A stretch of DNA of 64,000 nucleotides from Rhizophagus irregularis. Taxonomy: Eukaryota. The stretch lies in the NCBI RefSeq assembly GCF_026210795.1, contig NC_089429.1, forward strand, positions 5,518,001-5,582,000, given 5' to 3'. A program made the position numbers and the translations under genes. Under the pieces are notes generated by a model. The model saw only the letters and a list, made by a program, of their open reading frames with translations, searched no databases and was not told the DNA's origin. Below are positions 20,684 through 25,790 of the stretch, one piece after another (the stretch's first letter is position 1; every line of letters begins with the position of its first letter).

Positions 20684-21142
20684 GTTTTCGGCTTATATAG
20701 TATTTTTTGTGAAATATTATTGGCTCAAAAGTGCGGTATGTGAGGACAAGAGTAAAAAGAATTTTATTTGTGAAAAAATACTGAGTGAGTACTATATGTG
20801 AGAAATTATCTGTTGCACAGACCTGTCGTTCGATCGGCCACATTGCATCATAGGTACAACAATCGCCTAATCACTGCGCCTCCCTAAACCGTGAAGACTC
20901 TTCTCACTTATCACCTGACGTTTTTTATATAGGCTAGATTGGCTCGGATAAAAATGTTAGATTTATAGTCCGATATTATATAGTGATCGGGTTCGCAAAT
21001 CGAACACCCCATATCATTACACGTGACCCATTTCTCATGTACCGATAAAATAATAATCCTTTATTTATGAAATAAAAAACATTGCCGGAACTGGCCTACA
21101 ATACATAAAAATTGCGAATATATCGCTACATGATACAGATAA

Positions 21143-21447
21143 TTATTTGGGGTATACAGTGATATGGAAGTGCTCTGCTTTAGGCTCCTCATCAAAAGAA
21201 AAAATCTCAGAAAACTGATCGTACCCGTCCATTTCCTTTTCAATACCGCTTCCAGCTTGAATTATACAAAATTTGAGAGGGATTTTATTAAATGATGCCC
21301 CAATCTGCTTTGAATTTCAGCCTCGAGTTCACTAGGACTATCATGTTTGCGAACTACAATTGATTGTATTACTTTAATACCCGGAATATTCATAAGTTTT
21401 CCTATAGGAATGATAAGACAATTGAGAGTGATGGTGTCATCGGCCAT
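21143..21447 (-). pseudogene. Stand-alone CRN-type ubiquitin-like header, frameshifted
   Basis: MADDTITLNCLIIP...SELEAEIQSRLG, then after a frameshift FNKIPLKFC...EEPKAEHFHITVYPK*. Confidence 0.6.
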
Positions 21448-22070
21448 TTTCGATTCCTAAATACAAGAGCCATAGTGAGAAAAACCGCCCCCATACATAC
21501 ATAATTTATGACATATACATACCTTGTTTTGCGTCATGTTTCTAGGAATTTTTTTGAGGAAAGTTGGCTGAACTTCCACATACTCCTACATGCTTTATAT
21601 CTTGCTGTTGGGAAGGAAAAAGAGCGCCAAGCCGAAGTTAAGGAGGTATGAGACATTATTAGCATTGTCGTATGATGCCAAGAGTTCTATGAAAGCACAT
21701 GTAAACGGAATCCTCATACCTCTTCACATGTAGAGATCCCTTTGGGATCAGATCTACCAGAAAGACATATAGTCGGTTTTACGCCTGGCGATCTCGAAAA
21801 TGTGAGTCCACCAGCCTTTTATAACATATGCTTCTGCCATCGGTATTTACTTTTACGGTAGGTCCTGTGTTGCAACTAGACCTCCTTTCACATTTTTCTC
21901 ACATTTGTTTGGGAAAAAAATAAAGAATAAAGGTTAATGTTTTTTTCGATATATATGCGAAAATTAATGTGTCGCACAACCTATCTGGTGATCCACTTAT
22001 TTTTTGTCGCACATGAATTCATGCATTGTGGCCCAGCAATTTCTTCCGAGCTGGTGATCACCGCTCCGGA

Positions 22071-22940
22071 CTAGTCCGAGTATCTTAAACGGAGAGGGTC
22101 ATTATTACTATAGACATATTCATCCTCTGATTCGGTTTCAGAGCCGGATGATTCCGTTTCAGTATACTCTGAATCATAATACTCACTTACACCGTCGAAT
22201 TCACGATCATGTTTGATAAACTTGGTTATTATGACCTCCCCATCTGAGTTATTTTCGGTAAAATTAGGGAATAATAATTCGTAGAATGTATATAACGGCG
22301 GAGACAGTATATCAATGCCATTTCTTACGTAATAAAGTCTTTTCTCTTCATTATTTTCCCAATATCTTGTATCGCGTTTATCAATCCTACATCCCAACCT
22401 AATTAGCCAATTATTACCTAAAACCACATCATATTCAGGCTTGTCAACGACTAAGAAATGCTCGTTTGATTTTCCCACATACGAGAGGGGTTTCAGCTCA
22501 AAGATATTAGGTAAAGAAATGGAGACTTCTTCATCACGAACCCATCCTCTTACCATTACCTTCTTGCCAGCGTCTTCTTCATCACGAACCCATCCTCTTA
22601 CCATTACCTTCTTGCCAGCGTTTGTTGCGCCAATGCCAAGATCTTTTACTGCGGGATATTCTGAACCATAGATTCTAGTAATATATAAACCAATTTTTTG
22701 GGCAAGTGTTTTACTGATACTATTATACCTGGATTTAGGGTCAATCAATGCCTTAACAGTTACTTTATCATAAATGAATAAACACTCCACTATTAATCTT
22801 TTGCGAATTTCTCGAGTCACCTCATCTTTCCATATATTATTTATACTGCAACATTTTTTAAGATCCTGTATCGAAAGATTTTTTAGAATAAATGGTATTA
22901 GTTCAGGCGCAAGCTGATCAAGTAAATTAGCTGTATGCAT
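22071..22940 (-). CDS. F-box + retropepsin-like aspartyl-protease-fold protein
   Basis: LDQLAPELIPFILKNLSIQDLKKCCSINNIW (F-box); VKALIDPKSRYNSISKTLAQKIGL...FLVVDKPEYDVVLGNNWL (retropepsin). Perfect 48-bp internal duplication at 22526-22621. Confidence 0.8.
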   Translation of the reverse strand: MHTANLLDQLAPELIPFILKNLSIQDLKKCCSINNIWKDEVTREIRKRLIVECLFIYDKVTVKALIDPKSRYNSISKTLAQKIGLYITRIYGSEYPAVKDLGIGATNAGKKVMVRGWVRDEEDAGKKVMVRGWVRDEEVSISLPNIFELKPLSYVGKSNEHFLVVDKPEYDVVLGNNWLIRLGCRIDKRDTRYWENNEEKRLYYVRNGIDILSPPLYTFYELLFPNFTENNSDGEVIITKFIKHDREFDGVSEYYDSEYTETESSGSETESEDEYVYSNNDPLRLRYSD

Positions 22941-23114
22941 TTTATATGATTAGAAGAATTTTCAATCGGGAAAAAATAGAGATAGTTGGCATATATGTTT
23001 TCTTTTTCGAATATATATGCAAAAATTATTATGTCGCACAGACCTGTCTAGTGATCCACTTATTTTTTCTGTCGTACAATCTGTGGCTCAGCAAAAAATC
23101 TTCTGAGCTGAAGA

Positions 23115-23879
23115 TCACTGCTCCGGACTACCTTCGCTCGGGTTAGTTATCCAATGTATACCTCTCAATAAGTATTGTACCCCATTCAGATTAGCAATAC
23201 CGGACTGACTAATATAATCTTTAAACCCAGTTATAATACCAGTCACTGATTCTTTTTTCGCCTGAATAAGCATTTCTACCAATTCACGATAATAAATATT
23301 TTTTGCAATACATCTCATATTTTCTCGTATTAATCCACTATAGAATTCACTTCTAAAATGACCTTTACAGAGTTTGATGATATCATTACTTTTCTTCGCC
23401 TTTAAACAGTAATCCACTATTAATTCTTCACCTTGAATAAACAATCTACATTGGAACTTCTCAATACCTTCTGGCCATATTTCCCTTTGAAATTCATGCG
23501 GATAATATGGCAATTCTATCAGACTCAAAATATGTGGAAGATAGAAAACATCGGATTGTATAAATACATGGAATAATGACGATGGATTTTTTACACTAGG
23601 CAAAGCATGTACAAATTGCTTAAGAGCTTTCTCCCACCAACGCGTAACTGCCTTTGTCTCCCAATAGGTTTTGATTGTGCAAAAAAGATCGTCCCAGTAT
23701 CTCCACTCATCGGGATTCCTTTCATTATCCCATTCATATCTCGATCCATATTCTTTGATAAATTCATCGTAGCCTTCTTCTATCTCGGTATCTATCTCGT
23801 CATCTGACATTTTGCTAGTAGATTGATTAAATATTTTCAATCGGAAAAATAGGTTGATCATTGCTTGTTTCTGTCGCAC
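23115..23879 (-). CDS. Hypothetical protein (likely start MSDDEID near 23810)
   Basis: Intact intronless ORF flanked by the shared intergenic module. No family recognised. Confidence 0.6.
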   Translation of the reverse strand: MRQKQAMINLFFRLKIFNQSTSKMSDDEIDTEIEEGYDEFIKEYGSRYEWDNERNPDEWRYWDDLFCTIKTYWETKAVTRWWEKALKQFVHALPSVKNPSSLFHVFIQSDVFYLPHILSLIELPYYPHEFQREIWPEGIEKFQCRLFIQGEELIVDYCLKAKKSNDIIKLCKGHFRSEFYSGLIRENMRCIAKNIYYRELVEMLIQAKKESVTGIITGFKDYISQSGIANLNGVQYLLRGIHWITNPSEGSPEQ

Positions 23880-24394
23880 AGGAGTACATGCGCAGGCCTG
23901 CCTAGTTTCAGCTGTTCTTTGATTTGGTGGAGGAATTAGTACAGATAGTACAGATAATGGAGGGGTCCGATGCGCATATCCTCCCTATCCTTTCTATATT
24001 ACATCGAAATATACAAGATCTCGTTGAAGCGACATGTGAGGGGGAAACTATGTCACTTGGGGAAATTTATCATTTGCTTTTATATTTGGAATGGGATATA
24101 AGCTTAATTCACGGTGATCTTGGTATTGTCAGTTATACTAATTCAGAAATAAGTAGATCAGAAGCCGATAAAAATGCAAGAGCATATCTTCAAAAGTTTA
24201 GACGGTCCCTTGCCTTTAGCGCCTTCGGCAAGAGATGTTCCAAGTGTGATAATACAGAAATTCATCGATAGGAAGTAAAAATGATTTGTTTTACCGGAAA
24301 GGGCTTCCGTTAATTCTGAAGGTCTAGAACAAGTTAGCTAATCTATATTTTTTGTCGCACAGGGCACATCTAGATGCAAAAAAAATCTTCTGAG

Positions 24395-25546
24395 CTAATG
24401 ATCGTCACTCTGGACTATAGATCTAGCCAACCCTGGATCGGAATACCACTGCAAATTATCTCGCATACTTAGATCTAAAATTCTCTGAGCTAAAGTCTGT
24501 CTACTAGCAATGTTGTTCTGTGTAAGATGATTTATAACTACCCCAATGAGATCAGGGGGCGATAAAGTATCCACGAAATTCTTGATATGGATATTTGGAT
24601 TAAGTGAAACGAGCTGATCTATGGCTTCTTTAGTAATATTAGCACACCCCTCCAGATTAAGATATTTTAAATAAAGACACGAACGAGAAATTTCTTTGAT
24701 AGTTACATCAGTAATTCCACAAAAACTAAGGTTGAGATGTTGGAGATTTGGACAGGAATGAATGGCATTGCAAATTGAAGTCTCGGCGACGTAAGCACAC
24801 CTAACAAAATCAAGATACTCTACACTAAGATGTTTCTCTACATTAAGGTGTTTCTCTACAGTAAGAAGTTTTTCTACTAATATATCACATTTATTTTTTC
24901 TTCGACAACTACCCGGAATACTGAATCTTCGTAAATTTGGGCATGAGTTTAAGATGTGACTTATAAATCTTTCAGAAATCAAATGCGCACAAGCAAAATG
25001 AAACTCTTGTAAAGCTTAGCAACTGTCCGCAATTTTGATTAAAGATCTATCAGTAATGCCTTGGCAGAAAGAAATATTTAGATATTCTATTTTACGACAT
25101 GATCCCACCATTCCACATAAAGCTTTATCACCCATAATACCACTACTACATAAATTAAGATATCTCAGATTGGGGTATGCTTTAAGCTGATTTAATGCTC
25201 TATTACTAAAACCCACACAATTTTCGAAATTCAAATGAATTATGTTTGGGCATGTTCTTACGATGCCTTCAATTTTCTTACTTGAAAGTGGATTATAGTA
25301 TGGAATTTCGAGATGGGTTAGTTTTGAGCTATAAATTGGCTTTTGCTTCCCACATACTAATTCTATGAATTTCTTTGCTTTGGGATCGTTCCCCTTTAGC
25401 TCAATGCGTCTCCATAGAATAGGGGCACCGCATCTGTACCACAATCGGGAAACATATAGAGCGGGATAGAGGGATTTATCTATCGCTAAAAAATGTAAAA
25501 TATATTCTAATAGTTCTGGTAAATAAAAGATGTTTGATTGCGCCAT
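24395..25546 (-). pseudogene. F-box/LRR (RNI-like) protein with one in-frame stop
   Basis: FYLPELLEYILHFL...LWYRCGAPILWRRIEL followed by LRRs ([16 protein letters not shown]). The two ORFs are in frame across TAA at 25016-25018. Confidence 0.88.
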
Positions 25547-25623
25547 AAAAAATATATGCTGTATCTTTAAACAAAAAATAAAATTACATTATTATGCAAA
25601 GCATCTTCGGCCTGCTCCGGATT

Positions 25624-25790
25624 GTTATTCTCATTTTACTTCTTTGAATGGGATCGCAAAATTATCGTTCTAATAATAGTTTTGAATTGCATATATCCAA
25701 AGTTGCACCATTTTCTTGAAACCATGGCATTTCTAATACTAAATCAGAATAATAATCAGGCCAATCCGGTCCAAGAACTATGAATGCAAC
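25624..25790 (-). pseudogene. 5'-truncated copy of the retropepsin-like gene at 36467-36868
   Basis: Nucleotide similarity to about 36467-36640 (TTTTACTTCTTTGAATGGGATC...AAAGTTGCACCA...GGCCAATC.GGTCCAA.AACTATGAAT). Confidence 0.8.

Follow-up and report, generated by a model that had tools for sequence, protein, structure and literature searches.

Why are unrelated genes in a decayed virus-like element separated by nearly the same stretch of DNA? We addressed this question in a 64,000-nucleotide (nt) stretch of Rhizophagus irregularis contig NC_089429.1 (positions 5,518,001 to 5,582,000, forward strand), hereafter the window, numbered from its first letter. From its sequence, window 1 to ~46500 looks like one decayed virus-like element, which extends past the left end of the window and whose host is a Rhizophagus-type fungus. 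The element carries an array of genes set apart by a repeated spacer ~160 bases long, which we call the module. Our verdict is that the module is a real feature, that cargo genes really turn over at it, and that it is no integron. The spacer is probably a reused gene-end and promoter unit whose repeats allow ordinary homologous recombination to gain and lose cargo.

A first-pass annotation of the sequence had reported near-copies of one spacer between unrelated genes, and this observation holds. Copies m1 (21942-22073) and m2 (23003-23130) share 78% identity over 138 columns (E 2e-24), and they are bridged by contigs from other sequencing runs. Contigs of run X1, which is perhaps the window's own source, are identical to the window and bridge copies at 21844-22555, 22592-23361 and 23787-24454, and runs X4 and X10 have contigs identical to the window across 23862-24351. 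The module copies are therefore not an assembly artefact. The partial copies reported at the same time were found in place at 24346-24417, 23868-23891, 20793-20827, 7045-7077, 7157-7189 and 36442-36460. The module starts at or near the upstream stop codon and ends in a T-tract ahead of a gene-specific leader. In the sense (minus) direction, its order is an imperfect palindrome of ~30 nt centred on GATC (palindrome A), a T-run, TGTGCGACA, a second GATCA unit, a second TGTGCGACA, a TATA-like tract and the final T-tract. The copies in the window, with "ORF" for open reading frame, are as follows.

21908..22073, minus strand: m1, full; palindrome A at 22073-22044, its first TAG being the upstream stop codon, then a T-run, two TGTGCGACA (22013, 21978), the TATA-like tract and the final T-tract
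22968..23130, minus strand: m2, full; the upstream ORF runs into it, ending in SPEQ and a stop
23833..23900, minus strand: m3, truncated; one TGTGCGACA, a T-tract and a leader in common with the gene at 22940
24336..24417, minus strand: m4; palindrome A, T-run and one TGTGCGACA
20790..20886, minus strand: m0, diverged; precedes a Crinkler-type gene, its A-like part below threshold
7045..7240, minus strand: diverged module remnant; two TGTGCGACA-type motifs after a gene ending in ISP and a stop, with a probable remnant of palindrome A
36446..36463, minus strand: left half of palindrome A, between a retropepsin-like gene and the first F-box/LRR gene; a decayed twin lies at ~25610-25625

Run X11 has a longer form of m3, fused to m2-type sequence. 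The copies near 25610 and 36445, which the annotation had listed with the others, are present, with a corrected context: they are parts of a tandem duplication of a two-gene unit (retropepsin-like plus LRR).

The short motif TGTCGCACA occurs exactly six times in the window, always on the plus strand; with one mismatch there are 13 matches, 12 of them on the plus strand, where 5.6 are expected. Matrices for the 9-mer, trained solely on metagenome loci and used at a threshold of one match per window, gave 11 minus-strand matches and one plus-strand match above threshold in the element and zero in 46500-64000. Diverged forms are thus present throughout the element (20822, 15800, 7175, 7079). A pattern count of 3 versus 0 is circular, as the pattern was derived from those very copies.

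The window array runs LRR, X (inverted), G248, FAsp and anchor. Its genes, together with two further genes of the element, are listed here; L numbers denote related loci described below.

24395..25546, minus strand: upstream anchor, an F-box/LRR gene, broken near 25016
23957..24271, plus strand: cargo X, opposite in orientation to the array; an ORF of L011 is 64% identical to it
23115..23810, minus strand: cargo G248, a protein of 231 amino acids with no Pfam match and 45 Glomeromycota or metagenome homologs
22071..22940, minus strand: cargo FAsp, with a weak N-terminal F-box and a region that we take, from its motif, to be retropepsin-like; absent in L014
21143..21447, minus strand: downstream anchor, a small Crinkler-like gene, frameshifted in the window, with a long leader from ~21910
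19204..20683, minus strand: Crinkler N-terminal domain gene in two ORFs, after m0 (PF20147, E 3e-21)
36467..36868, minus strand: ORF, presumably retropepsin-like by its motif, with no Pfam match; replaced or absent ahead of the LRR gene in L013, L015 and L016

The array had been described as co-oriented on the minus strand. This is so in part: cargo X lies on the plus strand, so the array is not wholly co-oriented, and an insertion at 26700-36300 carries plus-strand ORFs. The tail of G248 resembles LRR-gene tails. FAsp contains a 48-nt in-frame duplication at 22525-22574; run X11 and L017 have the form without it.

A single metagenome scan with the palindrome pattern yielded 14 loci. All 14 are relatives of the array and align with it outside the module as well, as expected if the motif is tied to these elements. 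A dispersed miniature inverted-repeat transposable element was considered and rejected, given the array context of 14/14 matches and the lack of terminal repeats. A profile found 24 module copies in the 14 loci, which with five in the window makes 29, all on the sense strand. At least two copies are present in eight of the loci, and in 11 the leader of the small Crinkler-like anchor comes after a module. Neither the palindrome pattern nor any of three protein queries found a match in viral contigs, where a 17-mer scan returned five stretches, all judged to be chance.

Between the F-box/LRR anchor and the Crinkler-like anchor lie zero to several cargo genes of nine kinds, three of them inverted, each closed by a module. 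The LRR-type end stands straight on the anchor module in L008, L009, L012 and L015. One other gene is found in each of L006 (U6), L013 (U3, inverted), L016 (U5, inverted) and L019 (U2); the label "LRR3" for the upstream gene of L006 is uncertain, and this gene may be a G248 paralog. G248 stands on the anchor without FAsp in L014 and likewise at a joint in run X1 (22074 to 23250). In L010, the LRR gene stands on FAsp without X and G248, while L011 reads LRR, U2, X, with U2 as an additional gene ahead of X. U8 precedes FAsp in L017 and L018, and L007 has U1. A second variable slot lies ahead of the LRR gene (window, L013, L015, L016), with the left half of palindrome A again as its closing element. 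The annotation had proposed checking whether cargo differences break at the module, and in the 14 loci they do: 19 of 33 internal alignment ends fall within modules, which make up 18% of the region, a figure inflated because the loci were picked by the module pattern.

Could the module be a mere spacer that travelled with tandem duplications of a single gene, the coding parts of which later diverged or gave way to others, and that has no particular part in exchange? The retropepsin-like and LRR pair is indeed tandemly duplicated, and cargo genes have tails and leaders in common. We nevertheless regard such a passive relic as quite unlikely, as the nine kinds of cargo are mostly unrelated, three are inverted and each is module-closed, and one cassette (L014) as well as U2 (window relative to L011) were lost cleanly.

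The positions of the junctions bear on how cargo is exchanged. Upstream, fewer than 10 nt are common before the first module base in 278 of 315 between-class pairs (26 copies, some classes being split by short flanks). Some between-class pairs have 15-30 nt in common there, and unrelated genes have common C-terminal tails of 20-60 residues. G248 paralogs have a C-terminal tail in common with LRR-type ends, the final residues being module-encoded and SPEQ-like. Downstream, new sequence begins at module position ~40 (U6), 48 (U2), 75-80 (X), 105 (U3), 160 (FAsp versus anchor) and 190 (U5). Judged by eye, the crossover behind the L014 loss lies in or before the first 18 nt and that behind the U2 loss between ~21 and 50. 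DNA runs contain joints that are mosaic modules. The sequence of palindrome A goes with the upstream gene (permutation p 0.0006) more closely than with the downstream one (p 0.038) in a test on 18 of 25 copies, seven having been dropped for indels or truncation; many crossovers thus appear to lie downstream of palindrome A. Junctions range from shared gene tails to ~position 190, with no fixed crossover point, and this variation indicates that crossover sites are scattered, though with a concentration at the left edge. Reversed gene order was not seen, only four loci having gene pairs in common with the window.

We infer that the module is also a promoter. Two root or soil RNA studies yielded contigs of related copies that run across the anchor leader, most of them ending at 21873-21919, next to the T-tract. 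This is a weak hint of transcription start there; one RNA contig ends at 21920 in what is presumably sequencing adapter. Missing RNA coverage over the module itself does not count as a sign of silence. Several observations weigh against our reading. Genes follow a module without the presumed promoter half in L006, L010 and at the LRR gene itself, and one low-depth contig from an RNA run covers 23032-23126 within m2. All of the loci are short (1.0-4.5 kb) and were selected by the palindrome pattern. The folding of palindrome A does not surpass that of shuffled sequences (z -0.43, -0.83 and +1.75), the fold z for whole modules being -1.4, and a hairpin terminator is therefore not supported. Of the two readings offered by the annotation, the promoter/terminator one fits, as a reused promoter and gene-end module that also serves as a recombination junction. 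Rfam gave no match in 19000-26000, leaving a known RNA or tRNA-derived repeat unsupported. Finally, the left-edge clustering, which also holds for an inverted gene (L013), could reflect a directed cut, as could two junctions at the central GATC, one in L016 and one in a loose end of run X11.

The enzymes that might make such a cut, and a second palindrome, are the following.

613-1275: homing-type endonuclease (endonuclease-like ORF)
37015..38118, minus strand: protelomerase-like protein, the tyrosine recombinase of the first-pass annotation
46339-46400: perfect 62-bp palindrome, AT-centred, preceded by 32-bp repeats

We predicted the structure of the protein at 37015-38118 (predicted local distance difference test score 67.6, predicted template modelling score 0.47). 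Foldseek with this model placed Cre and TelA in a tie. A wider structural search gave TelA (Z 10.6), TelA (10.2), TelK (9.4) and ResT (8.0), followed by XerA (6.4), Cre (5.8) and an integron integrase (PDB 2a3v; 5.4). The root mean square deviation of the top match is 6.2 with 255 residues aligned, and that of the integron integrase 6.4 with 205 aligned. Among its language-model neighbours, 19 of 30 are ResT-TelK (0.96) and one is a phage integrase, while sequence searches of PDB and Pfam identified no family. The predicted fold is thus most like that of protelomerases, or telomere resolvases. The gene is of the tyrosine-recombinase superfamily, and the protein resembles protelomerases, its top four structural matches, more than it does integrases. 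The family is widespread in Glomeromycota, with distant relatives in a representative library (534 proteins at E 0.001); the closest homologs are from Rhizophagus (83-90%), and every homolog with a named source is from Glomeromycota. R199, K232, R301 and Y341 reach at least 90% conservation in one alignment or in both, and the His is Gln in the window's subfamily; by their spacing, these residues are candidates for the catalytic R-K-R-H-Y set. The 62-bp palindrome and its 32-bp repeats (46190-46400) lie close to the element's likely right end, and the palindrome is the likely target, as a candidate site, of this enzyme; alternatively, it is a candidate origin for the element's helicase. Protelomerase linear replicons (TelA, TelK, ResT, FirrV-1 B51) are alike in the fold of this protein and in having a long perfect palindrome in cis. 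They differ in that the locus here is within a fungal chromosome, with 8-12% identity, Gln for the conserved His in the subfamily and a candidate enzyme identified by fold.

Directed capture would have an element enzyme, either the protelomerase-like protein or the homing-type endonuclease, nick or cut palindrome A, with repair copying in foreign genes and a variable-length duplication. Beyond the left-edge clustering and the endonuclease-like ORF itself, such a process would account for half-sites that end or begin at the central GATC (L015, L016, window 36463 and the X11 loose end) and for a half-site immediately after the enzyme gene in L015. The junctions are not base-exact, however, and common tails extend far upstream. 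Selection for an intact downstream promoter would yield the same clustering, and the perfect palindrome at 46339-46400 is the stronger candidate for a protelomerase substrate. We consider directed capture unlikely.

Integrons consist of an IntI integrase, an attI site and attC sites. The array resembles them in having variable single-gene units, each with an imperfect palindrome after it, beside a gene of the tyrosine-recombinase superfamily. In a true integron analogue, as the annotation had suggested, palindrome A would be an attC-like site at whose fixed crossover the 37015-38118 protein excises and inserts cassettes. Palindrome A does follow each stop codon with staggered bulges, 85% of its cells pair, it tracks the upstream gene, and the enzyme gene adjoins the array. 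However, its covariation score was reached by 54 of 500 shuffles, and paired cells changed on both sides by 14 of 500; by eye, its variation is largely CpG-decay-like. No IntI-type integrase, fixed crossover or set of co-oriented promoterless cassettes was found: the enzyme is nearer to protelomerases than to 2a3v (Z 10.6 versus 5.4), junctions vary, the module looks promoter-bearing, three of nine cargo kinds are inverted, and order reversal is missing from the four comparable loci. A protelomerase-like enzyme with the 62-bp palindrome as its likely target removes the main support for an integron, and we regard this possibility as very improbable.

The nearest system known is PeSL, the promoter/stem-loop cassettes of T4-type phages; the module works like PeSL and is not PeSL. 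According to PMC2839356 and PMC4122927, PeSL is likewise a repeated intergenic unit that runs from the upstream stop codon, is concentrated in a hyperplastic region of orphan genes and has indels mapping to it, with degraded half copies nearby and a few copies among core genes; its promoter activity and mini-circles have been demonstrated. Here, too, the unit lies in a variable region and starts at the upstream stop codon, the open upstream frame closing within -30 to +21 of the first module base in 17 of 26 copies (4 of the 17 with flanks under 81 nt), and gene gains and losses map to it. In contrast to PeSL, the module is ~160 nt, belongs to an integrated element in a eukaryotic host, and has neither sigma-70 boxes nor a Shine-Dalgarno sequence, and a stable stem-loop terminator is not supported. 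Instead of a T4-type phage with a sigma-70-like promoter, the named sources of homologs are all Glomeromycota; the cargo includes F-box/LRR and Crinkler-like genes, and the promoter role is deduced. Baculovirus homologous regions, too, are found at variable loci and contain interspersed imperfect palindromes of ~30 bp around a central restriction-like site. Here, by contrast, each unit has a single palindrome, which is linked to stop codons and to a single strand.

Under our preferred reading of a reused gene-end and promoter unit, the spacer would have been multiplied by tandem duplication, and each new cargo gene would come in along with a duplicated variable stretch, made up of gene tail plus module. 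Repeats would then recombine, within an array or among the many element copies of a genome, and so remove or transfer cassettes at varying crossovers. The TGTGCGACA pair, TATA-like tract and T-tract would supply an incoming gene with ready-made expression signals. Summed contig depth is highest over modules and anchors, which is not copy number and only a sign of many related copies.

Other features of the element and its flank are given here.

Within the element: A32-like ATPase, split in two pieces (Pfam E 0.00015, under the cutoff)
Within the element: origin-binding-type helicase (E 2e-12)
26700-36300: nested repeat insertion with plus-strand ORFs, splitting an F-box/LRR gene with its 5' end at 36393; it contains inverted repeats of 153 nt at 28070 and 33877 and a 50-nt tandem array at 35600-36150
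39100-41500: nested repeat, a hAT-like insertion (DUF659, 40-nt tandem array), which apparently interrupts a small plus-strand ORF (38587-41620)
15210-19084: 3.9-kb segment with a plus-strand Crinkler/NTPase gene; missing from L019, where its flanks are joined, and so another variable slot
110-613: ORF with a motif that we take to recall the C-terminal part of Polinton retroviral-type integrases; no database match
48445-51656 and 60806-61399: BED zinc finger and Sel1-repeat genes in AT-rich host flank

A second repeated motif, TTACTGCG, occurs four times in 110 nt at 12646-12749 and again in L016 near 800-900, at the start of the inverted cargo U5, with a similar form in the X11 loose end; it is possibly a second promoter type.

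An A32-like ATPase in a Glomeromycota genome is also a feature of the Glomus/Rhizophagus Maverick-Polintons, which the accessible part of 10.64898/2026.06.19.733378 notes solely from fragmented assemblies and as ATPase genes only. The present element differs in having a primase with an origin-binding-type helicase together with a protelomerase-like gene, and pPolB and capsid genes were not seen within the window. The traits of a Maverick-Polinton are an A32 ATPase, an RVE integrase, pPolB, a capsid and terminal inverted repeats. Our search found no paper on this element or module, although subscription papers, repeat libraries and supplements outside it could hold one; a literature search for the 9-mer gave only primers among the matches listed. 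PMC8647823 mentions a recent Maverick expansion, PMC10640383 concerns a different, giant viral region, PMC13465315 treats CryptonA elements, and a term search of 10.64898/2026.10.13.758929 found no mention of fungi.

Arbuscular mycorrhizal (AM) fungi were long held to be asexual, and how they built up their huge, strain-variable repertoires of F-box/LRR, Crinkler and orphan genes has yet to be settled. The array offers a concrete and testable route, namely the swapping of such genes at a repeated spacer in a virus-like element that exists in many copies, and it would carry PeSL-type shuffling over from phages to a eukaryotic element. A protelomerase-like gene and a perfect palindrome in a fungal chromosome point to hairpin-ended DNA replicons, and double-stranded DNA viruses are barely known in fungi. 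A bolder proposal, which we hold only as a long shot, is that AM fungi host undescribed hairpin-ended, protelomerase-bearing DNA viruses or plasmids with a gene-capture array, in which the enzyme cuts the palindrome at the head of the promoter module and new genes (F-box/LRR, Crinkler effector-like) land expression-ready. If true, this gene-capture array would be a eukaryotic counterpart of the integron.

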